A stretch of 64,000 nt of DNA from an uncultured Lachnospiraceae bacterium (lineage in GTDB: Bacteria; Bacillota; Clostridia; Lachnospirales; Lachnospiraceae): the NCBI GenBank assembly GCA_910588535.1, contig CAJUOO010000002.1, positions 47,176 through 111,175 of the forward strand. The letters are read 5' to 3'. Numbering within the stretch: the first letter of the stretch is position 1; every line of letters begins with the position of its first letter. The translations under genes were made by a program, and so were the position numbers. Under the pieces are notes generated by a model. The model had not been told where the DNA came from. It searched no databases and worked only from the letters and a program-made list of their open reading frames with translations. Positions 436 to 11,968 of this stretch are shown one piece after another.

Positions 436-1440
436 TTACACTATTTCCACACGGTCATATGCCCTGCTGTAAAAATACACATTGTCGGATAAGACTTCTT
501 CCTCCGCAACCTCGGAACCGTTGATTCCCTGAACCATCATTTTCATGTATTCAACATCCATGTCCTCCGTGTCAGGGAGAAAGATAAGCTCATGTATAGA
601 GGACGGGAGAATGTAAAAATCAGAACCGATACACTCCGCAAAATCCCTTAACAGGTTCGGGTACAGAAGGACGGATGCGCCGTTAAGCCTGTCATGATTG
701 GAAGCCACATACATAGGAAACACATCTTCCGTTACCGCTGGCATATCATAAAATTCTCCTGAATCACCAGCATCCAGCATATCCTCCATCATTTCCACCA
801 TCACGCTTTCCATGGACTGCACCCTGCCCCTGAAAATACGCTGCGTGTTCTCCATGGCGATAGGATAGATTGTCTGCGTATCGGTTCCCCATGCATCCAT
901 AAAACTATTTCTTACAAGGATTGTGCCTGCATCTTTATGCCCCCTTGACACCAGAATGTAAAAGACAACGGCAAGGTCATGGTACGGGATATAAGGGATG
1001 CCTGAAAGCAATTCCCTGTTCCGCTCCGCATTTACCAGCTTGAAGCATATCCTTTCTTTCGCACGGTTGAAGTCTGTTACCATCCTGCTGTCAAATCCCC
1101 GTACCGCCTTGCCCTGCTCATATAAGCGCATAATTTCCTTACATACCGCTTCCATTGTCATGCCGTCCTGATATTCTTCAAACAGGCTTTCAAGGTAGAT
1201 GGTCGGGGCTATGTTGATAACCTTCTCACGGATGGCAAGCCCTGTTAAATGTGTGCCGTTGTTCTTCGTCACTGGCTGGATGCTGATGCTATACCCGCTG
1301 CCATAGACCGCCTCCATTGCGCTCTTTACTGTCCCTGCAAATGCCTCCATAGTCCTGATTGTACCGTCTGCCATGATTATGCGTCCTCCTTCGTTGTTCG
1401 AATTGCTGTTAGCTGCTCCGTTATTCTTTGCGTTGTTCAT
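436..1440 (-). CDS. DUF5688-like protein (ICE accessory/leading-region protein)
   Basis: 334 aa with SD AAAGGAG 9 nt upstream of the ATG. It has an Asn/Gly-rich N-terminus followed by a globular domain. The resemblance to DUF5688 is recalled, not searched. Confidence 0.6.
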   Translation of the reverse strand: MNNAKNNGAANSNSNNEGGRIIMADGTIRTMEAFAGTVKSAMEAVYGSGYSISIQPVTKNNGTHLTGLAIREKVINIAPTIYLESLFEEYQDGMTMEAVCKEIMRLYEQGKAVRGFDSRMVTDFNRAKERICFKLVNAERNRELLSGIPYIPYHDLAVVFYILVSRGHKDAGTILVRNSFMDAWGTDTQTIYPIAMENTQRIFRGRVQSMESVMVEMMEDMLDAGDSGEFYDMPAVTEDVFPMYVASNHDRLNGASVLLYPNLLRDFAECIGSDFYILPSSIHELIFLPDTEDMDVEYMKMMVQGINGSEVAEEEVLSDNVYFYSRAYDRVEIV

Positions 1441-1731
1441 AGTGATAATCTCCTTTTCTTTGATAAAATGTGTTGTCGTGTTCCATATTCAGTTGTAAGC
1501 TGCTGTTTCAGGCACAGCTACCATGGATTCTGCAAGGGAACCACCGCCTTTCCTTTGGATTGTGTACAAAAATAGAACAGTTTTATGACTTGTTCAGGTC
1601 AAATAAAAAAGACACCAAGATTTCTCCTGATGCCTTAAATACTCTGATATATAGACCCGTGGGGTTCCGAACGAAAAACTTCTGTAAAAGTTAAAAGCGG
1701 GAACCGAACGGAAAATATATCTGAAAATTTC

Positions 1732-2475
1732 CTATATAACGGGCGTTGCCACACCCATGTTTACATATGTATAATCCACAATAATAATCAAATGGTCATA
1801 CACTACTATCGTGAAAGTCGCTGCCTTATTCCCATCCTCTTTTATTATTATGAATTGCATGGGCGTACAAACCATAGTACCCAGATTATAATATGACTTT
1901 TGCAGACAATCCGCTGCTTCATCAAAAAATGGCATACTTAATTCCCTGCTTGGAATACCATTACCATGCTGCCCTGCATACTTGCAAAAAGCATTATAAG
2001 TATTCAGGATATAATAATCCGTACCAGAATAAAGCCTGTAAAAATCTTCTTTATCAGGTATGTACTCCCACCTGTGATAATCAACCCAATTGCAGAAATC
2101 CTTACCGTCTGGCTCACAGTTTATAAGGATTTTATATTCATTGCATACCAGAAAAAGATACTTATATCCTCTGTAGCTTAGTATTTTTAAGCCGTTATCC
2201 TTACTATTGCTGTTGGCAACATGGTAGCTGCCACTTTCCATAAGGGTGACATATTCCGTATCAGATTCAGGAGCACTCTGCGCCACATAATCAATGCTTT
2301 TCCTGATTCGCTCATTTAACGCTCTGGCATCCATATTATCTTGATAAAGTTCCCAATCTATAAACTCTAAAGGAATCTTTTGTCTTTTTATTTTCTCAAA
2401 AACAATATATAAATTTGTACAAACCATAGTTTTTACTTTTCCTACTTTCCATGTACCACTTCCATAAAACATCAC
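1732..2475 (-). CDS. hypothetical protein (AT-rich cargo gene)
   Basis: 247-aa ORF. The start is uncertain; the ATG at 2427 (M17) has a better AGGAAAAG SD. No motif recognised. Confidence 0.55.
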   Translation of the reverse strand: MMFYGSGTWKVGKVKTMVCTNLYIVFEKIKRQKIPLEFIDWELYQDNMDARALNERIRKSIDYVAQSAPESDTEYVTLMESGSYHVANSNSKDNGLKILSYRGYKYLFLVCNEYKILINCEPDGKDFCNWVDYHRWEYIPDKEDFYRLYSGTDYYILNTYNAFCKYAGQHGNGIPSRELSMPFFDEAADCLQKSYYNLGTMVCTPMQFIIIKEDGNKAATFTIVVYDHLIIIVDYTYVNMGVATPVI

Positions 2476-2524
2476 TCAATTTTTTTAGTATTCGTTTTTA
2501 CTAATAATATATGTATACTTCCTT

Positions 2525-3013
2525 TCAAACCTCTCCCCGCAGCATTTTCGATACAAGATATTCTTTTCCAAAAAACTTTTCATAATCTTTCAAGGTATGG
2601 TTACAGTATAATATAGTTTCGGTGATTTGTTTTTCTAGCGCGATAGTATTATTATTCCTAACTCCTGTTTCATTTAAAATTCTTTTTGCGTTTTCGCAAT
2701 GTACTAGTGCATCCTTATGTAACATCTTATATTTCTCAAAAATCATATCATATTTTTCACCATTGCTTTCCTCCCATTTATCAATCAACTCTTTTATATT
2801 ACTGACTCTTCTAGTGGCAGTAGTACCCCAAATAATGCCAAGGCCATATAATTCGTTTCGCATTTCACATAAGTCTGTAAAGAAACGACCAGCTAGACCC
2901 GTTGCTTCTTTTGCTTTATCGTAATGTTCTAAAACTACATTCAACACACTTGGGTCATCTACTTTTTCAATAGTTACATTTATTTTTCCCCACTGTATAT
3001 CTCCCATTGACAT
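2525..3013 (-). CDS. hypothetical helical protein
   Basis: 162-aa ORF with AGGAGGT immediately upstream. The likely start is the third codon, ATG at 3007. It lies 5 nt downstream of the preceding gene. Confidence 0.6.
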   Translation of the reverse strand: MSMGDIQWGKINVTIEKVDDPSVLNVVLEHYDKAKEATGLAGRFFTDLCEMRNELYGLGIIWGTTATRRVSNIKELIDKWEESNGEKYDMIFEKYKMLHKDALVHCENAKRILNETGVRNNNTIALEKQITETILYCNHTLKDYEKFFGKEYLVSKMLRGEV

Positions 3014-3018
3014 ACCTC

Positions 3019-3378
3019 CTAATAATACTGGAACTCATTAACAAGTTCCCCTTTTTTGTCTATTTCATTCAGGATATCTTCATCCACCTGATATGCAGGG
3101 GCTTCTGTTTCATATGTAGCTTTAATAAAATACCTATCCATTGGATTTTTCTTTGTATAAATTACACCGTGGTTGCGAAGCCTATCTCTTATCCTGCTTA
3201 CTGTCACAACCGCCCTCTGCATATTTTTCCTTGCATTAACTCCCAGCATTCTTCCAACCACATCAGCCGCTGTGTTATTCAGCCAATTTGCAATGCTATC
3301 CCAAAATTTGTCTAAAATAACCGCCAATGCAATCCCCACTACAGCTCCAAGTGCTATTCCTGCTACTACATGCCACAT
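3019..3378 (-). CDS. small membrane-anchored protein (one N-terminal TM helix)
   Basis: 119 aa with SD GGGAGG 10 nt upstream. The N-terminus WHVVAGIALGAVVGIALAVIL is hydrophobic and the rest is soluble. Confidence 0.65.
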   Translation of the reverse strand: MWHVVAGIALGAVVGIALAVILDKFWDSIANWLNNTAADVVGRMLGVNARKNMQRAVVTVSRIRDRLRNHGVIYTKKNPMDRYFIKATYETEAPAYQVDEDILNEIDKKGELVNEFQYY

Positions 3379-3486
3379 AATGTATCTACCTCCCTATCTT
3401 ATATATTTTCTTAATTCCGAGTCATTTATTATAAATCTGGCAAATATGGATTATCTTTTTGCACTCCATATTTTAAACTTATGTCT

Positions 3487-4344
3487 TTATTCAGAACAAC
3501 GAGCTATTGTCGCATATATTTCCTTTTCAGTTTCTTTATCACCACCCGCATATTCTAACGCATAATTTGCTACTTCTATTGCTTTATCTTTTTCTCCGCA
3601 TTCTTCATATATTATAGACATCCATCGATAACAAAAACATGCCATTGTCCGCCAATATGGAATGCCCCTCGATAGATTATCTCCTTGATTATTAGAGAGA
3701 ATCCTCTCTACAGATTCCAGACAAAGATTTGAATATCTTATTACCTCTCGACCATGACCTTCTAAATCAGATTCAGACAATTCAAATTCTGAATTTGACA
3801 TTAGACTAAAGCATTCTGCAATCTCACCATCAGATTCAGCATAATCCAAAGCAGATTGCACCATTTTTAATTCATTATGAAAATCCTTATAATTACCATA
3901 CAGTCTCCCCATATTTATATAATAAGTCCAATGGTCTCTACTCGTCTCTGCGAACCTAAATCCCGCTTTCCATACTTTCATAGCATTTTCAGGCATATTC
4001 ATTCCCATATAACACACGCCCAAATCGTTATGACATAAGAACCTCTGTGTATGAGCACCATAATAATTAGTGCAATATTCTATCGCTTTCGAAAATTCTA
4101 TAACAACTTTCGCATCATTCATCTCCGATAAACTTCGCGCCATCAAATAGTGTCCCCAAAATTTATCAGCATCCGTTTTTGCAAACCACAAAACTTTCTT
4201 TGCCGCATTTAATGCCCCCTTATAATCTGCGCTATTATAAAGAGTCATCGCTTTATCTACTGCGTTTAACAGTGCCTTTCCAGGTGTTCCTTCATATTTG
4301 GTTTCTATGCTTTTTATGGTAACATTCGACCATTCCATTTCCAT
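3487..4344 (-). CDS. tetratricopeptide-repeat protein (operon gene E)
   Basis: 285 aa with repeated ~34-aa A/Y/G-patterned helical pairs (e.g. GHYLMARSLSEMNDAKVVIEFSKAIEY). It starts 6 nt after the stop of gene D. Confidence 0.75.
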   Translation of the reverse strand: MEMEWSNVTIKSIETKYEGTPGKALLNAVDKAMTLYNSADYKGALNAAKKVLWFAKTDADKFWGHYLMARSLSEMNDAKVVIEFSKAIEYCTNYYGAHTQRFLCHNDLGVCYMGMNMPENAMKVWKAGFRFAETSRDHWTYYINMGRLYGNYKDFHNELKMVQSALDYAESDGEIAECFSLMSNSEFELSESDLEGHGREVIRYSNLCLESVERILSNNQGDNLSRGIPYWRTMACFCYRWMSIIYEECGEKDKAIEVANYALEYAGGDKETEKEIYATIARCSE

Positions 4345-4350
4345 AATTTA

Positions 4351-5115
4351 TCATTTCCTCTCTTTCATCCCTCGTTCCGATACTGCATAACCTAATAAAT
4401 TCTGTATTCTATGGGGTGCATACGGTACAATTTCATCTGCCTTAGTATAATTGAGTACCATATCATCCAGCCTGTTTATCTCGGATGCCTGACTGATAAA
4501 CTCCTTCACGTCCACCTGTTCTGCCAACATTATGCTGTTCAGTACCATTTTCAGGATTGCATCAACAGAGCTTTTCACGCTCCCACACATCAGATATGCA
4601 AAATTATCAGCGGAATAATTCGCAAGCCTGTACCAGTGGTAGAATGACAGTTTTGACGATTTTTCAAACTGGTCTGGTGCCATCTGGTGAATAACTTTAA
4701 ATCGTTCCTCCATCATAGTACGCTGCTTTGTCACGCCATCCGCAATCTTATATATCTCCCTTGCCAATACAAATTGCAGCTCCCTATCCGTAAAATCCTG
4801 TATGGTCTTTGCGGAAAGCTCTATCCAGAAATTGCTGATTCCATAGCTCTCTGCGCCGTAATAATAATCCTCATAGACATACACGGTCGGGCTGCTTATC
4901 CCTGCTGCCCCTGCCATATCTCTAACCATCTGGAACACTCTGGGAAACTGTTTTTCCGATACCCTTACTGTCTTCCCAAGGAAATCAGGCAGCTTTATCT
5001 TATAGTCGATTTCGTCATAAACCTTCTCGAAATCCTCCTGAAACATCACACCGCCCTCATACTGGCTGTATGCTTTATCCTGCCCTGCATGGATAAACGC
5101 CGAACGTTCCATCAT
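4351..5115 (-). CDS. M48 (HtpX/Ste24)-fold protein lacking the HExxH zinc site (operon gene D, pseudo-peptidase)
   Basis: 254 aa. The region PTVYVYED...NFWIELSAKTIQDFTDRELQFVLAREIYKIADG follows the M48 pattern, but HExxH reads AREIYK. There is an ATGA overlap with gene C. Confidence 0.6.
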   Translation of the reverse strand: MMERSAFIHAGQDKAYSQYEGGVMFQEDFEKVYDEIDYKIKLPDFLGKTVRVSEKQFPRVFQMVRDMAGAAGISSPTVYVYEDYYYGAESYGISNFWIELSAKTIQDFTDRELQFVLAREIYKIADGVTKQRTMMEERFKVIHQMAPDQFEKSSKLSFYHWYRLANYSADNFAYLMCGSVKSSVDAILKMVLNSIMLAEQVDVKEFISQASEINRLDDMVLNYTKADEIVPYAPHRIQNLLGYAVSERGMKERK

Positions 5116-5777
5116 ATATACACATACACCTCCGTATCTCCCAGAACTGCAAGCACTTCCCCCACAACCTCACGGCATCTTGTTTCTCCCGTTTCCCTGT
5201 AGCATGACTGCAACGCTTCCAATGCCTCCATATCATCAGGGATGAATTGCAGCGCATAGGTTAGGAACGGAACCGCTTTCTTGTACAGCCCTTTCCCTGA
5301 CAGCAGCATTCCGAACACTTTATTTGCAAGGAAATGTCCCTCCACGCTCCCATGCTCCCGAAAATACGCCTCCATCAGCTCAAATGCCTTGTCCTTATGC
5401 CCTGCATGGTATTCCTGCAATCCCTGAATACACTCCATGAACACAAAATTATGACCATCTGCCATCTTCACACAGTCACCCAGATTTTTGAAACTGTTGG
5501 ATGCAAGGAACACCATGCGGTACAATAGCTGCTCCCTCTGCGCCATCAGTTCTGACCTGTGCTTTTTCCCATAGTCCGAATTGTCCTGTATCTCAATGCT
5601 GGTCTTTACTTCGCCCTCAATCCGCTTTAGCTCCTTCTGGATGCGGCTTATCTGTGTCTGCATATAGCCTGTGTCATAAAAATGTGTTTCTTCTATGACT
5701 TTTTCCGTTGCCCCTGATAATGCATTGACAAATCCCATCTCTGCCTTGCGGTACATTGTCACGGTTTTTTCAATCAT
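5112..5777 (-). CDS. coiled-coil / TPR-like helical protein (operon gene C)
   Basis: 221 aa with SD AGGAGGG inside the end of gene B. The N-terminal part is a charged helical segment and the C-terminal part has TPR-like repeats. Confidence 0.65.
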   Translation of the reverse strand: MIEKTVTMYRKAEMGFVNALSGATEKVIEETHFYDTGYMQTQISRIQKELKRIEGEVKTSIEIQDNSDYGKKHRSELMAQREQLLYRMVFLASNSFKNLGDCVKMADGHNFVFMECIQGLQEYHAGHKDKAFELMEAYFREHGSVEGHFLANKVFGMLLSGKGLYKKAVPFLTYALQFIPDDMEALEALQSCYRETGETRCREVVGEVLAVLGDTEVYVYI

Positions 5778-5780
5778 CCC

Positions 5781-6953
5781 TTATCCCTCCTGACCGCTTA
5801 TCTCTTTCTGGTACTGTTCCTCGGTAATGGTTTCCGTGGATACTACCTGAAACCCTCCCGTCCCGCTTTTATCCTCATAACGTTCTCGGATAACATGGTA
5901 GGCATAATCAAACACAGAAAAATCCAGCATTTCCTTTTCCTGCTCCAATGCATACAGGGCAGCATAAAATACCATATCCTTGATATCTGCCCCTGAAATG
6001 CCCCCATAACGCCCTGCAAGGCTGTCTGCTGTGACTTCCCCCTGCAATGGCATTCTCGCCCCTAAATGCAGCTTCCAGATAGCTTCCCGCGCCTCCCTGT
6101 CTGGCATATCGAAATAAACGCTCAACAGGATTCTCCGCTTGAACGCCTCGTCATAATTGCTGATAAGGTTTGTTGTAAAGACCACGACACCCACAAACTT
6201 TTCCAGTTCCATCAAAAGTACGCTTCTGGTGATGTTCACCCCATAATCCGCTGACTGCGTGACGGATGTAAGCCGTTTCCCCAGAAAGGAATCCGCTTCA
6301 TCAAATACCAGCACCGCATCATCCCTTGTGGCGCACTCAAAAGCCTTTCGGATGTTCTTGGGCGTTTCCCCAACATACTTTGATTCCAGCTCCGAATAAT
6401 TGATGTGGTACACTTTCTTGCCTAGAGCCTGTGCGACCGCCTCCGCTGTCATGCTCTTGCCTGTCCCAGCTTTACCATAAAAATTGAGGATGATAGCCCT
6501 GCTGCCATTAAAATATTCTGACATCCCCCATTCCTCGGACATCTTCTTCCTGTGCCTGACCGCTGATATGGCTGTCCTGACCTTCTCCCTGACTTCCTCA
6601 TTCAATGCGACCTGTCCCAGCGAAAACCTCGGTTCGTAGCTCTCTATGATTTCCTGTGCTGGCTCCTGCTGCCCCTGCTTATCATTATCAGATATAGCCC
6701 TGCTGCCCGACTTTCGGATGATGATTTCATCTGGTACGGGGTTGTATCTGGAACAGTTGCCCTTGACCGCCTTTGCCATCTGTTCCAGCATATTGTCAAT
6801 CAGTATCTCGTCCAGCAGTTCCTCTTTCCCGTTTACCTCCCCCGTAAAGACATCCTGCAAATGGAAGCTCACTGTCCTGCCCCCTATGGAACAGTATTTT
6901 GTAATCCCTGCTGCCTTTATGTTCTGTACATCTGGTTCTCTTTTCTGTTTCAT
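5781..6953 (-). CDS. classical-clade AAA+ ATPase with ~150-aa N-terminal non-ATPase domain (operon gene B)
   Basis: Walker A is GKAGTGKS and Walker B is LVFDEAD. It also has the ESKYVGETPKNIRKAF and FKRR motifs. There is an ATGA overlap with gene A. Confidence 0.9.
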   Translation of the reverse strand: MKQKREPDVQNIKAAGITKYCSIGGRTVSFHLQDVFTGEVNGKEELLDEILIDNMLEQMAKAVKGNCSRYNPVPDEIIIRKSGSRAISDNDKQGQQEPAQEIIESYEPRFSLGQVALNEEVREKVRTAISAVRHRKKMSEEWGMSEYFNGSRAIILNFYGKAGTGKSMTAEAVAQALGKKVYHINYSELESKYVGETPKNIRKAFECATRDDAVLVFDEADSFLGKRLTSVTQSADYGVNITRSVLLMELEKFVGVVVFTTNLISNYDEAFKRRILLSVYFDMPDREAREAIWKLHLGARMPLQGEVTADSLAGRYGGISGADIKDMVFYAALYALEQEKEMLDFSVFDYAYHVIRERYEDKSGTGGFQVVSTETITEEQYQKEISGQEG

Positions 6954-7204
6954 TTCTTCCCGCCTTTCCCGAATATCAAAGGTACGGCATTGGGGTTTCT
7001 GGCAAAATAGCCTGTTGCCCTGTTGATGGCTGTATTACCGTCACCATCACGCCAATATCCCGCTACGGATGTACCGTCTTTCCGCATATATGCGCTTACA
7101 TTGTGTGGATGGACATAATGCGCTGGCGTGAGTGTGGTAAACTGCCTCCCCCTGCCACTGAATGTATTGATTGCATAAGGCTGGAATGTCGTTTCCCCTA
7201 ACAT
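6950..7204 (-). CDS. small soluble protein, Gly/Arg/aromatic rich (operon gene A)
   Basis: The track ORF starts at a GTG (7213). The ATG at 7204 has SD GGAAAGG about 8 nt upstream. Motif: YMRKDGTSVAGYWRDGDG. No TM segment or signal peptide. Confidence 0.6.
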   Translation of the reverse strand: MLGETTFQPYAINTFSGRGRQFTTLTPAHYVHPHNVSAYMRKDGTSVAGYWRDGDGNTAINRATGYFARNPNAVPLIFGKGGKK

Positions 7205-7232
7205 ATCTTTCACCTTTCCTGTCCGCTACAGT

Positions 7233-7255
7233 CTGTATCTTATTTTTCGATACAG
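7233..7255. promoter_or_regulatory. inverted repeat CTGTATC-N9-GATACAG in the divergent promoter region (possible operator)
   Basis: A perfect 7-bp inverted repeat lies between the first gene of the minus-strand operon and the XRE gene. Confidence 0.3.
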
Positions 7256-7357
7256 CTACACATATATTAACATATTAATAACTAAAATGCTACATCATGT
7301 TACATTTTTCTATGTTATGCCAAATAAAATTTTTATAAATGGAAGGTGGATAAGGAT

Positions 7358-7786
7358 ATGAAGGAACGGCTGCTCCCTGAAAAACTGAAAGAACTGCGGA
7401 AAGCGCACAACTACACACAGGATTATGTGGCTGCTGCCCTCGGTGTTGTGAGGCAGACCTACAGCCATTATGAATCTGGCAGAAGGACACCAAGCCCCGA
7501 CATCCTCTATAAGCTGGCTGGGCTTTACAATATCACCGTGGATGATTTGATGCAGCTCACGATTGAATTAGACCGCAATGTCTACTATGATGCACCAGCA
7601 CCCACACAATCCAGTGAGGATTTAGCTGGGTTCCTCGAATACTTCAACAGCCCGAACAACAAAAAGAAATACCAGCTTTTCAACAATCTGGAAAAAGAGC
7701 TGCTGTATTATTTTGAGAAGATATCAGAGGATGATAAGAGGGAAATCATAGAGTTTACGAAAATCAAAGCACATAAGAACAGATAA
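7358..7786 (+). CDS. XRE-family helix-turn-helix transcriptional regulator
   Basis: The HTH signature is LKELRKAHNYTQDYVAAALGVVRQTYSHYESGRRTP. The ATG at 7358 is preferred over the GTG at 7346 (SD GGAAGGTGG). Confidence 0.85.
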   Translation: MKERLLPEKLKELRKAHNYTQDYVAAALGVVRQTYSHYESGRRTPSPDILYKLAGLYNITVDDLMQLTIELDRNVYYDAPAPTQSSEDLAGFLEYFNSPNNKKKYQLFNNLEKELLYYFEKISEDDKREIIEFTKIKAHKNR

Positions 7787-7829
7787 CAGCCAAAGTATAG
7801 CATGACCGTACTCTGGCTGTTCTTGTATT
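7785..7829 (+). terminator. possible intrinsic terminator of the XRE gene
   Basis: The stem AACAGCCAAAG / CTCTGGCTGTT has 1 mismatch and is followed by a weak T-rich tail, CTTGTATT. Confidence 0.35.
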
Positions 7830-8297
7830 AAAGCCATATATAGGAAGGGCTGGGTATATATCTTTTTGTTTCTTTAAAGGAAAAGGAGTCGGTTCTCCCA
7901 GAAATTTTCACTGGATTTTCCCCTATACTGCGATTCCAAAAATATATATGCAGATTTTTCTCCCTAAATTGGCAGTTTCTTTAACCTATAACAGCAAAAA
8001 AGATACCATTCATAGAAGTATATCCTATGAATATAGTATCCCTAAGTTAACAATATTGTGTCGTCATCAAGAGAGACAGACTGACATATTATTAAAGAAA
8101 ATATTGCTCTAATCTGCATCCGCTAATCTTCATTGACTTGGCTGCTGCCACGCTATGCTTTGCTACAATATTCTATATTATAATATAATTCGCTAAGATA
8201 TGCTCTGCTCTGCAATATCCACTTTCAAATATACACCAGCCGTCTCTTCTATTAAGATAACACACTCCGCATAAAAAGACAATCAACTAAACAATAT

Positions 8298-8870
8298 TCA
8301 ATTTTCACACTGTAGCCTCTTAGCCCGCAACAATGTACTTTTGCTGATGCCTGTCATTTCTGAAACCTCTTTGTAAGAATGATTCTCCAATAGCTCCATA
8401 GCATGATTCAGTTGTGCCCTGCCATACTTCGGTGGTCTTCCCTCCTTAAAGTCAGGGTTCTGCCTTGCTATGGCTTTCCCTTCCCCTGTGCGCTCCACAA
8501 TCATATCACGCTCAAATTCCGCAAATGCAAGCATGACGTTCCGCACCAGCTTCCCCGTAGGGGTATTGTCCATCATGCCCATATTCAGCACATGGACGGT
8601 GATACCCTTATCAAGCAATGACTGTATCAGTTCAATGCCCTGTGTGGCACTTCTGGCTATCCTGTCCAGCTTCGTGACCTTCAATGTATCGCCTGGCTGC
8701 ATGACTGTCAGCAGCTTATCCAGTTCTGGGCGGCGTGATTTCGTTCCCGTAAAAGCATCTGCATAAACCTCCTCTGCCCCTGCTGCCCTTAGTGCGTTCT
8801 CCTGTGCTTCCAGACTGTTCCCGTCCTTTGCCTGTGTCTTTGTTGATACCCTTGCATAACCGTAAATCAT
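8298..8870 (-). CDS. small serine recombinase (resolvase/invertase family)
   Basis: [13 protein letters not shown] carries the catalytic Ser, and there is a C-terminal HTH ([16 protein letters not shown]). The ATG at 8870 has SD AAAGGAGAA. The upstream 44 codons of the track ORF are discarded. Confidence 0.9.
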
Positions 8871-9027
8871 AATGTGTTTCTCCTTTCGTAATTTGATTTC
8901 AGGAATCAAAAAAAGAAGGTCATTACAACCTTCTCCTAATGATACCCATGATTCTATTTTGTTACTTATGAATATAAGAAATGACACCACTGGAAGCCCC
9001 ATAAAACCGTAGGTCAGCAGTTGGTGT

Positions 9028-9045
9028 CATAACTTAAAAGTTATG
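9028..9045. other. perfect palindrome CATAACTT-AA-AAGTTATG (hix/res-like candidate recombinase site)
   Basis: Two 8-bp half sites surround a central AA, about 160 bp upstream of the recombinase start. The loop is too short, and there is no T-run, for a good terminator. Confidence 0.3.
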
Positions 9046-9059
9046 GTACTACACAATAC

Positions 9060-9848
9060 TTACCAAGATAATTTACCATTCTCTATTTGTATCGGTTTAC
9101 CTTGAACGTTTGATAAAACTTGCATGATTCCAGCAAACTGCAATTGCACCCCATTTGACTTAATTGTCACTCTCATTGCATTATTAGGTGTTAATGGTCT
9201 AAACAGTCGTATCGTTTTCATTTTCAATCTAACAGGAGTTCCGTTAATACTTCCATCTACCTCACCTGTACTATCATAATGAGTTGAATCCTCTGGTTGC
9301 ACATCAAATTCTTCATATTTGTTATTAAAAATAAAAGCAAAATTTGCATCATTTTCGCTAAACATCATTGCCCTGATTTCTATTTTAATCAATTTATCTG
9401 ACACAATATCTACTACAGCCTTTACGTTCTCTATATCCGCCAAAGCTTTATATGTACTATTTCCTTTTGCTACGCACTTCATTTGTGCAACTGCATCATC
9501 TAAACCAACTCCATACAAATCTATATATAATGAATCGGTTAATATAGCAGGAGGTTTACAATCCGCAATTCTTACAGGTACAAATTTCAAGTTCTCGTTT
9601 ATGGACTTAGTTAATCCACTTTGCCATTCCTTTGTTACCATCTTACTGTTTAAACTATTTGGAGATAAAAAATAGAAGAATGTAGTAAACTTTTCTATCC
9701 CTTCATTCATTTTTCCAATTATGCTATCTCCTGGCTGTATAGACCATTTATCATAAAAAATATTATTTCTTCCAAATTCCAATTCCAACCTTCTTGCAAC
9801 CATATCTACTATTTGTTCATCATTATGGTTATAACTAATAAAAATCAT
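9060..9848 (-). CDS. TIR-domain protein with ~130-aa beta-rich C-terminal domain
   Basis: MIFISYNHND ... NNIFYDKWSIQPGDSI ... FLSPNSLNSKMVTKEWQSGL matches the bacterial TIR pattern, including the Glu before Trp. The ATG at 9848 has SD AAGGAGG. Confidence 0.85.
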   Translation of the reverse strand: MIFISYNHNDEQIVDMVARRLELEFGRNNIFYDKWSIQPGDSIIGKMNEGIEKFTTFFYFLSPNSLNSKMVTKEWQSGLTKSINENLKFVPVRIADCKPPAILTDSLYIDLYGVGLDDAVAQMKCVAKGNSTYKALADIENVKAVVDIVSDKLIKIEIRAMMFSENDANFAFIFNNKYEEFDVQPEDSTHYDSTGEVDGSINGTPVRLKMKTIRLFRPLTPNNAMRVTIKSNGVQLQFAGIMQVLSNVQGKPIQIENGKLSW

Positions 9849-9934
9849 TTTACATGACCTCCTTCTCAAATGTTATTGTTAATCTATTCTCAGCATATCT
9901 ACGCCATTTAAAATCCTATCCTAAAATTTTTCAA

Positions 9935-11593
9935 TTAGCAAATCACATTAAAATATTTTAAGGCATCCTTAATGTACTCCACCTTCTCCTGCGGACAGTG
10001 CTTGACTTCTGGATTATCTTTCTTGGATTTATTATAGTTCTCTCCCATATCCAATCCACACATCCGCTTTACTTCTGCAATATACCTCGTATGCACATTC
10101 ACACCATACTTTTCCTTCACATACTCCTTAATCTTCCCATAGGTAGCCTTTTCTGTTGGCGTGTAATTGCTTTCTGCACTAGGCTCCATTGTTACCTCAA
10201 TTTTAGGTGTATCTTTTTTGAGGGATAATTTGACAACCGTCTCCACATGCCTCGTCTGCGGAAACATATCCACCATCTGCACCTTCTCCGCCCGATATCC
10301 CATCTCCTCCAGCTTTTTCAAATCTCTCGCCAATGTAGCCGAGTCACATGATACATACACTATTCGTTCTGGTTGCATCTCAACCATAGTTTGTAACAGT
10401 CCTTCTTCACACCCCTTTCTTGGCGGATCTACTACAATTACATCCACCTGCGCCGCAACCTCATCTCCACTATGCGTTTTATTCTTCTTACACCATTCAG
10501 GAAACACTTCCTCTGCTTTTCCAACAAAAAATTCTGCATTATCCACTCCATTTTTTAATGCATTTTGCCGTGCATTATCAATAGCAGCTGGTACAATCTC
10601 AACCCCATACACTTTACCAGCCTTTTTTGCAAGAAAAAGTGAAATAGTACCAATTCCACAATACAGATCCCACACCACCTCACGTCCAGTAAGCTCTGCA
10701 TATTCTAATACTTTCGCATATAGCTTTTCTGTCTGCACAGGATTTACTTGAAAAAATGACAACGGCGAGATCTCAAACCACACATCACCAATTCGATCCT
10801 CAATCGTTGTATCACCCCAAAGACTAATAATCTCTTTACCCAAAATTACATTTGTCCTCTCCTGATTTGGGCTTATTGTAATACTCTTCATCCCATTTAC
10901 CACCGCCAAACGCTCTGCCAAAATCTGCCCATGCGGAAGCTGTCTACCATTTATCACAATACAAACCATCAGATGTCCCGTGTGATATCCTTTTCGGATC
11001 AACACATGCCGAACCAGACCTGAATGGCTCTCCTCACAATATGGCTCCACATAATACTCACGCATATAATCCATGACAATAGACAAAATCTCTTTATTCT
11101 CCTCCACTCCCAACACACAATCATCACAAGAAATAACCGAATGAGTCCTGCCCGCATAAAACCCAGCAATCAGATTGCCGGACTTATCCCGCCCTATTGG
11201 AAACTGTGCCTTATTGCGGTAGCGCCACGGATTGTCCATACCAATAATCGGCTCACAACTATACTCAGATAACTTGCCGATACGATCCAGATTATTTCTC
11301 ACCATAGCTTCCTTAAGTCTAAGCTGCTCTTGATACTCATACGCCTGAAGCTGACATCCCCCACACTGCCTCGCCACTGGGCATCGTGGAGCAACACGCT
11401 TCTCTGAAGGCTTTATTAATTTAACAAGCCTGCCATACCCATAACTTTTTTTTGCCTTAATCACTTTAATCTCCGCCACATCTCCGACAACTGTATCCTT
11501 GATAAAAAGGGTATAGCCATCAACCTTGCCTATACCCTCTCCATCCTGATTGATATCTATAATTTCTACAACCGAATAATCATTTTTTTTCAT
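9935..11593 (-). CDS. rlmD: 23S rRNA (uracil-5-)-methyltransferase RlmD/RumA family with ~95-aa C-terminal extension
   Basis: It has a TRAM-like N-terminus, the Cys cluster CPVARQCGGCQ, the SAM motif DLYCGIGT and the PPRKG motif. The ATG at 11593 has SD GAGGTGG. Confidence 0.85.
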   Translation of the reverse strand: MKKNDYSVVEIIDINQDGEGIGKVDGYTLFIKDTVVGDVAEIKVIKAKKSYGYGRLVKLIKPSEKRVAPRCPVARQCGGCQLQAYEYQEQLRLKEAMVRNNLDRIGKLSEYSCEPIIGMDNPWRYRNKAQFPIGRDKSGNLIAGFYAGRTHSVISCDDCVLGVEENKEILSIVMDYMREYYVEPYCEESHSGLVRHVLIRKGYHTGHLMVCIVINGRQLPHGQILAERLAVVNGMKSITISPNQERTNVILGKEIISLWGDTTIEDRIGDVWFEISPLSFFQVNPVQTEKLYAKVLEYAELTGREVVWDLYCGIGTISLFLAKKAGKVYGVEIVPAAIDNARQNALKNGVDNAEFFVGKAEEVFPEWCKKNKTHSGDEVAAQVDVIVVDPPRKGCEEGLLQTMVEMQPERIVYVSCDSATLARDLKKLEEMGYRAEKVQMVDMFPQTRHVETVVKLSLKKDTPKIEVTMEPSAESNYTPTEKATYGKIKEYVKEKYGVNVHTRYIAEVKRMCGLDMGENYNKSKKDNPEVKHCPQEKVEYIKDALKYFNVIC

Positions 11594-11968
11594 ATATAAA
11601 CCACCTCTCTGCCCCAAACACCAATATATCATAAAATATATTAACTAACTCTTGCTTATCCACTCTAGCCTTCTTCTGTTTTTATCTTCTACTTAGTTAT
11701 AAAACTGACACACTATAAAAACACGCGGAAATAAAGCCACAATCACAACTGCCAATGATCCGTTTGTTTCGTATTTCTGCGGCATTACAGACAGCAGATA
11801 GAAAAAATTGAAAAATCAAACTAATCCAAGCAGGAAAAATAATACTATTTCCAACAAATTCCACATCTCCCTAATATACCTAAGTATAATAACTATCCAA
11901 ATGTAATTTTGACAAGTAAGACAGAATATTTATATTTCTTATTTTGTCACTCTTACTCTGAAAAAAAT

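Follow-up and report, generated by a model that had tools for sequence, protein, structure and literature searches.

The 64,000-nucleotide stretch analyzed here (hereafter the window) comes from an uncultured Lachnospiraceae bacterium (contig CAJUOO010000002.1 of GenBank assembly GCA_910588535.1, positions 47,176 to 111,175) and encodes a 262-amino-acid protein with an N-terminal TIR domain and a C-terminal all-beta domain. This protein is probably a self-contained, single-polypeptide abortive-infection NADase. Its gene is cargo of an integrative element directed at the rumA 3' end and lies at the edge of that element. A preliminary description of the window, made from the sequence alone, had placed the open reading frame (ORF) at positions 9060 to 9848, which is exact; we add that it lies on the minus strand. 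For its function the same description had left three options, namely, a single-gene TIR system, a ThsB that relies on an unlinked effector, or a protein functionally linked to a neighboring ATPase operon. Among these, the single-gene system is favored, because no partner is conserved across 37 loci encoding family members and two 8-kb plasmids. Judged by its conservation, the ORF is a member of a gene family and not a chance ORF, with homologues in 417 clusters (E ≤ 1e-3) that retain the ~260-amino-acid architecture throughout.

The assignment of the N-terminal half to the TIR domains, as proposed in the preliminary description, is borne out by Pfam (TIR_2, PF13676; residues 2 to 113, E = 1.4e-22, with a score of 80.9 bits where the curated cut-off is 28), and the three motifs quoted there are all found in the translation (FISYNHND at residues 3 to 10, FYDKWSIQPGDSI at 31 to 43, and FLSPNSLNSKMVTKEWQ at 60 to 76). 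An AlphaFold2 model of the whole protein has a mean predicted local distance difference test score (pLDDT) of 81. Foldseek aligns its TIR half with the solved TIR domains of MyD88, Hydra TRR-2, TLR10, BtpA, PdTIR, and AbTir (probability 1.00, target-normalized template modeling [TM] score of 0.6 to 0.68). The top whole-protein Foldseek matches in the PDB, EF-Tu/EF-Ts and diphtheria toxin, were rejected as spurious two-domain alignments (TM score of 0.2 to 0.28, root-mean-square deviation of 13 to 16 Å). At the sequence level, the best solved relative of the family profile is 9m0n (E = 1.1e-6) and the second is CRISPR-associated TIR 1 (Cat1; PDB 9mud; E = 1.3e-4), both of which carry an extra domain C-terminal to an N-terminal TIR domain.

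The NADase site of Cat1 is lined by S7, H8, N9, N10, D33, S68, and E74; the N10A, D33A, S68A, and E74A mutants are defective, and E74A abolishes function (PMC12162218). The HMMER alignment pairs these seven residues, in the same order, with S5, Y6, N7, H8, D33, S68, and E74 of the window protein, with identity at five of them (S5, N7, D33, S68, and E74). The glutamate to which the preliminary description had given the catalytic position, an assignment singled out beforehand for checking, is aligned with Cat1 E74 by both the family profile and phmmer. Across the 32 aligned family members, S5, N7, H8, D33, S68, E74, W75, and the BB-loop residues P39 and G40 are invariant (32/32). The alignments show that the TIR domain carries a complete NADase-type active-site signature. 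Cat1 further resembles the window protein in length (263 amino acids) and in its N-terminal TIR and C-terminal extra domain, and it depletes NAD+ upon sensor-driven filament formation. The extra domain of Cat1, however, is a CARF domain that binds cyclic tetra-adenylate (cA4) from type III CRISPR-Cas, whereas that of the window protein is all-beta and matches neither CARF nor any other Pfam family. The other relative, 9m0n, also has its TIR domain at the N terminus, but its chain, entered in the PDB as a "tetratricopeptide repeat protein," runs to 824 amino acids, and the part C-terminal to the TIR domain is long.

The C-terminal half had been described as beta-rich and unassigned, and both properties stand. 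AlphaFold2 places ~10 strands over residues 142 to 257 (pLDDT of ~90), and the domain modeled alone from 29 homologues again shows ~10 strands (pLDDT of 90.2, predicted TM score of 0.82). Pfam contains no match to it, nothing below E = 0.045 came out of a profile search against the complete set of PDB sequences, and Foldseek searches of the PDB and BFVD gave nothing at E ≤ 1e-3, the best matches being generic sandwiches (TM score of 0.3 to 0.49). The diphtheria toxin R domain, cohesin, and CBM3b were considered as fold matches and set aside, being generic sandwiches that give no functional clue. An exhaustive HMMER search of 1.84 billion representative proteins with the profile of this domain returned 111 matches, 65 of them with a family-type TIR domain in front; almost all the others are truncated ORF fragments, and a handful have other N termini. 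This search replaced a word-indexed one that had found only four proteins and missed the known family. Since the sandwich is found almost only behind the family TIR, the domain appears to be specific to this TIR family. The single clear example among this handful, P0192 (280 amino acids), has the sandwich at residues 161 to 279 behind a helical N terminus of ~160 amino acids that matches neither the family TIR profile nor any Pfam family; this N terminus may be a different effector joined to the sandwich.

The two halves of the protein evolve at different rates. Mean pairwise identity within the family is 30% for the C-terminal domain versus 70% for the TIR domain, and nonsynonymous divergence of the former is 2.4 times that of the latter. 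In closely related pairs, the ratio of nonsynonymous to synonymous divergence (omega) of the C-terminal domain is 0.1 to 0.5, indicating purifying selection. As read from these comparisons, the fast divergence of the C-terminal domain suits a specificity or sensor role.

Family loci were collected by scanning one genome per species, which gave 37 loci encoding members, mainly in Lachnospiraceae, Ruminococcus, Oscillospiraceae, Streptococcus, Granulicatella, and other Bacilli; the carriers include S. thermophilus, S. suis, S. salivarius, and Clostridium sp. Marseille-P299. No conserved partner emerged when all ORFs within 8 kb on either side were clustered, as no neighbor family is common to more than 6 of 38 loci. 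The neighbors that do recur are type I restriction-modification (R-M) subunits, AlbA_2/HATPase_c_4 proteins, tyrosine and serine recombinases, RhuM, and UvrB. When the 124 genes lying no more than two positions from the family gene were scanned with Pfam and PADLOC, this picture was borne out, and PLD, reverse transcriptase (RT), Fic, and Eco57I-type genes were added to it. This shows a defense-island context, with R-M, AlbA_2 (Schlafen-like), RhuM, PLD, RT, Fic, and integrase genes as neighbors. Neither SIR2, SLOG, or Macro families nor any cas family recurs among these 124 genes. Two Bacillus plasmids of 8.3 and 8.8 kb also carry a family member (38% identity, 93% coverage); besides replication functions, they share only the TIR gene and a small tyrosine recombinase. 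In a phage genome collection we found no homologue of the family.

Individual loci suggested further candidate partners. A 273-amino-acid membrane protein encoded upstream of the TIR gene on plasmid pHS18-8 was rejected, since neither the sister plasmid nor any of the other loci has it. A lead toward SPARTA and prokaryotic Argonautes came from the PADLOC "pAgo" model, which matched four neighbors, and from weak fold matches to TIR-APAZ; it was dropped because the four neighbors are AlbA_2/HATPase_c_4 proteins that match only positions ~55 to 470 of the 1,121-position fusion model, and no Piwi family is among the recurring Pfam families of the neighbors. At four loci from Streptococcus and other Bacilli (L006, L007, L009, and L026 in our numbering), a 450- to 502-amino-acid protein with AlbA_2 (Schlafen-like) and HATPase_c_4 domains is encoded immediately upstream of the TIR gene, often amid the genes of a type I R-M locus; the protein is not a family-wide feature and could be a lineage-specific companion of the TIR gene.

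The lack of a recurring partner also bears on a ThsB-like reading, in which the TIR domain would make a cyclic-ADP-ribose-type or ADP-ribose-conjugate messenger on infection, for an effector (ThsA-like or other) encoded elsewhere. The ThsB proteins of Thoeris systems are small TIR proteins that sense infection through phage proteins, as reported for the staphylococcal ThsB that recognizes phage capsid (PMC12578639 and PMC11312562; also cited in PMC12847820), and they make a signaling nucleotide (gcADPR or His-ADPR) by which ThsA is activated. The active-site residues that could be mapped are all kept in the family and are compatible with cyclase as well as hydrolase chemistry, and the invariant W75 beside E74 also fits this reading. 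The defining feature of ThsB, however, is a ThsA effector (SIR2-SLOG or Macro/TM) encoded next to it, and no such gene was found in the window, at the 37 loci, or on the two 8-kb plasmids. Nor does any SIR2-SLOG, Macro, or other effector candidate recur, whether within two genes or within 8 kb. The preliminary description had noted no ThsA-like, cyclase, or RT gene nearby, and this holds for the flanking genes and for 33 larger ORFs scanned at 17.9 to 63 kb. The window protein gave no ThsB match in a PADLOC scan at E ≤ 0.01, assuming that PADLOC-DB contains ThsB models, the 64-kb window gave no ThsA match, and the fold search with the C-terminal domain returned no ThsB structure. Moreover, the TIR gene moves as a single cassette among unrelated elements and phyla, which would uncouple it from an unlinked effector. 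We regard this alternative as unlikely.

The third option of the preliminary description, a link to the neighboring operon, did not survive comparison with the family loci. The region at 3487 to 7786 holds a separate candidate defense operon within the same element, in which an AAA ATPase is accompanied by genes for a peptidase-like, a tetratricopeptide repeat (TPR), and an additional protein (Table 1). The TIR protein could be pictured as a component of a multigene system with the genes at 3487 to 6953, which lie ~2 kb away on the same strand of the same element, and the ATPase matches PADLOC IetA models (E = 5e-28). When 11 genes of the element (436 to 8870) were searched with tblastn against 90 loci, however, the ATPase, peptidase-like, and TPR genes were absent from all family loci, and only the resolvase (L085 to L088) and a DUF5688 gene (L081 to L083) were found to accompany the TIR family across the 37 loci. 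A terminator, the resolvase gene, and a divergent helix-turn-helix (HTH) gene stand between the TIR gene and the operon, and the G+C content is 0.31 to 0.34 for the TIR gene against 0.45 to 0.51 for the ATPase region. A shared system of this kind is scarcely credible. The operon is not a canonical IetAS either, because no flanking ORF gave a serine-protease (IetS-like) match.

Comparison with characterized TIR proteins places the window protein near known one-gene systems and outside the available models. SpbK (YddK) of the Bacillus subtilis element ICEBs1 is a single protein of ~260 amino acids that combines a TIR NADase with a small noncatalytic sensor; it alone suffices for abortive infection, its sensor docking on the multimeric portal protein YonE and clustering the TIR domains (PMC8880864, PMC12847820). 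The window protein is likewise a one-gene TIR protein with a small extra domain and the cargo of a Firmicute integrative element. The arrangement is nevertheless reversed, as SpbK has an N-terminal four-helix bundle (residues 1 to 94) and a C-terminal TIR domain (PMC12847820), whereas the window protein has its TIR domain in front of the beta-sandwich, and the folds of the extra domains are unrelated. At E ≤ 0.01, the window protein gives no match to the PADLOC spbK profile (PDLC03825). The same model does match, at E = 1.7e-62, a second TIR gene at locus L085 (5132 to 5905), where, as in L086 to L088, a DUF6414 gene and this second TIR gene (together 4322 to 5908 in L085) directly follow the TIR-resolvase pair of a 94%-identical homologue. 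By these matches, L085 to L088 carry two different one-gene TIR systems side by side, and DUF6414 may be a SpbK-associated partner.

Validated single-gene TIR defense is also known from Escherichia coli TIR-V and TIR-VI, as well as TIR-IX, in which only the TIR domain can be annotated and of which TIR-V is linked to a phage portal protein (PMC11350192). By their description these are set apart from the present family, since they are proteobacterial and have "only a short TIR domain," whereas the family is found mainly in Bacillota and has a defined C-terminal domain of 120 amino acids. TIR-STAND and TIR-NLR (Avs-like) proteins carry a STAND NTPase and a repeat sensor, unlike the window protein with its 262 amino acids and no NTPase or TPR match in Pfam; the 824-position TIR-NLR model is matched over its first 92 positions only, by residues 5 to 92. 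The PADLOC scan that the preliminary description had recommended gave only weak, partial matches over the TIR domain at E ≤ 0.01 (PDC-S66, bSEFIR, TIR-NLR, SAVED_TIR, and RT-TIR). The match to the 282-position PDC-S66 profile (E = 1.7e-6) pairs residues 2 to 91 with profile positions 151 to 239 and is thus limited to the TIR domain, in a different position. In NCBIfam, the only match is a partial one to a retron-TIR model. A literature search found no paper describing this TIR family, and a survey of S. thermophilus defense islands makes no mention of a TIR protein.

With respect to its genomic setting, the TIR gene had been placed at the edge of an element, and this is confirmed in that it is the first full gene inside an element inserted at the 3' end of rumA. 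On its right side this element ends at ~10235 to 10255, within the conserved HVETV codons of rumA (junction alignment, in which L082 diverges upstream of CAYGTNGAGACGGTTG), and on this alignment the element replaces the 3' end of rumA from these codons onward. This is in line with rumA being a known integration hotspot for integrative and conjugative elements (ICEs) as well as prophages (PMC7168690). No second attachment site or copy of the rumA 3' end was found within the window, and the element extends past the left end of the window. Leftward of the TIR gene lie a serine resolvase of 190 amino acids, an XRE regulator, the IetA-like AAA-ATPase operon, and a DUF5688 gene. P0004, a 90%-identical homologue, occupies the same site after rumA in three contigs and is followed by ParE, RadC, DUF5688, and RelB genes. 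P0002, the 94%-identical homologue, lies in a different context, with resolvase genes on either side, beside the pair of DUF6414 and SpbK-like TIR genes.

The ~100-amino-acid tail that the element supplies to rumA was considered as a small partner gene and rejected, being confined to the window, L013, L001, and L081 to L084. Since it starts with the rumA motif ETVV, it is the replacement 3' end brought by the element and not a partner. The tail has no Pfam match; its homologues include an ORF that stands on its own next to the L001 TIR gene (2285 to 2596) and a 126-amino-acid ORF in L082 (4499 to 4879) that has no rumA body upstream. A degraded copy of the locus is present in a Roseburia metagenome-assembled genome (L013, 9772 to 10414), in which the rumA tail (9772 to 9999) is fused directly to TIR residue 60. 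There a deletion of ~340 bp has removed the start of the TIR gene, so that some lineages lose the gene through decay.

The order of TIR gene and then resolvase gene recurs in L085 to L088 (71% protein identity of the resolvase), yet the resolvase is absent from the other family loci; it is a recurrent neighbor and not a functional partner. A small recombinase nevertheless adjoins the TIR gene repeatedly, with a type that varies, being a serine resolvase in the window, in L085 (3587 to 4162), and in L086 to L088, and a tyrosine recombinase of ~190 amino acids on the two Bacillus plasmids (L089, 2744 to 3316; L090, 7730 to 8302). The gene arrangements suggest that the TIR gene moves as a small recombinase-associated cassette.

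This mobility could also speak for a weapon between mobile elements or an element-maintenance toxin, whose trigger would be a rival plasmid, ICE, or prophage, or the loss of its own element, and not a lytic phage. The TIR gene is always found on mobile DNA (at the edge of the rumA-targeting element, on small plasmids, and beside resolvases or integrases), in L081 to L083 it precedes the toxin-antitoxin genes ParE and RelB, and SpbK offers a precedent in that it targets a temperate phage that resides in its own host (PMC8880864). No antitoxin-like neighbor is conserved, however, and the frequent embedding in type I R-M loci and among other defense genes points to defense. Mechanistically this alternative overlaps with that of an abortive-infection NADase and differs only in the trigger; we hold it to be decidedly improbable.

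The same neighborhoods bear on whether the protein might be directed at a eukaryotic host, as a Tcp-like effector that interferes with TLR/MyD88 signaling in the manner of BtpA/TcpB, TirS, and TcpC. Its fold similarity to the TIR domains of BtpA, PdTIR, and MyD88, and the many carriers among gut and oral commensals and streptococci, would suit such a role. The fold similarity is, however, generic to all TIR domains, the protein begins directly with beta-A (MIFISYNH) and has no signal peptide or secretion motif, the genomic neighbors are R-M and other defense genes and not virulence loci, and members also occur on plasmids of soil Bacillus. A host-directed role is accordingly very hard to credit.

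For the favored single-polypeptide NADase, we envisage, taking SpbK, Cat1, and staphylococcal ThsB as analogues, the following course. In the uninfected cell, the protein would be an inactive monomer or dimer. Its rapidly diverging C-terminal domain would bind a trigger that comes from the phage, a multimeric structural protein being the most plausible candidate, and this binding would concentrate the TIR domains, which could then assemble composite active sites by stacking at the BB-loop/BE interface. NAD+ would be hydrolyzed to nicotinamide and ADP-ribose, possibly also with a cyclic ADP-ribose isomer, and the depletion of NAD+ would halt growth ahead of the release of phage progeny.

Several observations weigh against this interpretation. 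Met70 replaces the Trp that usually stands four residues ahead of the catalytic Glu (W-x-x-x-E; WCWDE in Cat1), and by this substitution the chemistry or the product could differ. The residues K121 and Y122, which complete the Cat1 site from the second subunit, could not be mapped onto the window protein. Fold searches of the PDB and BFVD with the C-terminal domain yielded no hint of a ligand or trigger, and its faster evolution is also compatible with relaxed constraint; omega below 1 in close pairs leaves positive selection unproven. The lack of a linked effector leaves room for an unlinked one, and no source has a name for the family beyond "TIR domain-containing protein."

The features of the gene itself are given in Table 1. 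In a mechanically produced ORF list it reaches back to a TTG at 9869; because the homologues begin at MIFISYNH, however, we take the ATG at 9848 as the start. The gene has its own Shine-Dalgarno sequence and a predicted terminator and is, on these features, monocistronic, since the terminator-like stem and T-run (8937 to 8904) lie downstream of its stop codon. In fold energy, the 3' region with its two hairpins reaches z = -3.5 versus shuffled sequences. The inverted repeat at 8975 to 9036 (15-nucleotide arms) could alternatively be a recombination site rather than an RNA element. A sigma-70 promoter scan was uninformative, with 7 sites versus 6.6 expected. The low G+C content of the gene (0.31 to 0.34) is flanked by ~0.43 in rumA and ~0.46 in the resolvase gene.

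Table 1. Features of the TIR gene, its element, and the rumA insertion site (window coordinates)
Feature	Position	Strand	Evidence or detail
TPR protein, 285 amino acids	3487-4344		
254-amino-acid protein	4351-5115		Weak M48/HtpX-like peptidase similarity
Unknown protein, 221 amino acids	5112-5777		
AAA ATPase	5781-6953		PADLOC IetA, E = 5e-28
XRE-type HTH regulator, divergently oriented, ahead of the ATPase operon	7346-7786		
Small serine recombinase (resolvase), 190 amino acids	8298-8870	-	ATG 8870; Pfam Resolvase, E = 1.5e-36
Intrinsic-terminator-like hairpin and T-run, between TIR and resolvase genes	8904-8937	-	Terminator scan (12-pair stem, then TTTTTTT); RNA fold
Imperfect long inverted repeat or RNA hairpin, just past the TIR stop codon	8975-9036	-	Inverted repeat I2; 15-nucleotide arms, 87% complementary
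Complete gene for TIR and beta-sandwich protein, 262 amino acids	9060-9848	-	ATG 9848, stop TAA 9062-9060; translation, Pfam TIR_2, 417 homologous clusters
All-beta (sandwich) domain at the C terminus, residues 140-262, with a proposed role in specificity or sensing	9063-9431	-	AlphaFold2 model; unmatched in Pfam and among PDB sequences
TIR domain, residues 1-131 (FISYNH as beta-A; invariant P39/G40 in the BB loop; S68...E74-W75 on helix alpha-C)	9456-9848	-	Pfam TIR_2, Foldseek
GAA codon of E74, predicted catalytic glutamate	9627-9629	-	Aligned with Cat1 E74; invariant in 32/32 family members
Shine-Dalgarno sequence GAAGGAGG, 9 nucleotides upstream of ATG	9858-9865	-	Direct sequence reading
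Element-supplied C-terminal tail of the rumA/rlmD ORF, residues ~463-565	9935-10250	-	rumA model ends at residue 464 of 565; tail homologous to L001 and L082 ORFs
rumA/rlmD body, chromosomal 23S rRNA methyltransferase, integration target (context only)	10251-11632	-	TIGR00479 rumA, E = 1.4e-141

One-polypeptide TIR NADases (SpbK, Cat1, TIR-STING, and TIR-SAVED) are the simplest known sensor-effector immune switches, and every new sensor domain is another way of detecting infection. What is new here is the layout of an N-terminal TIR domain and a C-terminal beta-sandwich, with a putative sensor that has no known relative; the principle of a one-polypeptide TIR sensor-effector is already known. 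Since PADLOC-DB v2, NCBIfam, and Pfam hold nothing beyond a generic TIR label for the family, defense inventories of the carrier bacteria probably miss it. The family is common in S. thermophilus starter cultures, S. suis, S. salivarius, and gut Lachnospiraceae, which gives it industrial and medical relevance. A small monocistronic protein is also easy to test, and the combination of a conserved enzyme half with a variable, putative sensor half is convenient for mapping TIR activation versus trigger recognition. Tentatively, and with somewhat less assurance than we attach to the NADase itself, we propose that the C-terminal domain may be a previously unrecognized phage-sensing module and that the family, which is widespread among Firmicutes of the gut and mouth, may represent a one-gene TIR immune system that has yet to be named and whose specificity is set by rapid diversification of this domain. 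If so, swapping C-terminal domains between homologues would re-target the defense.

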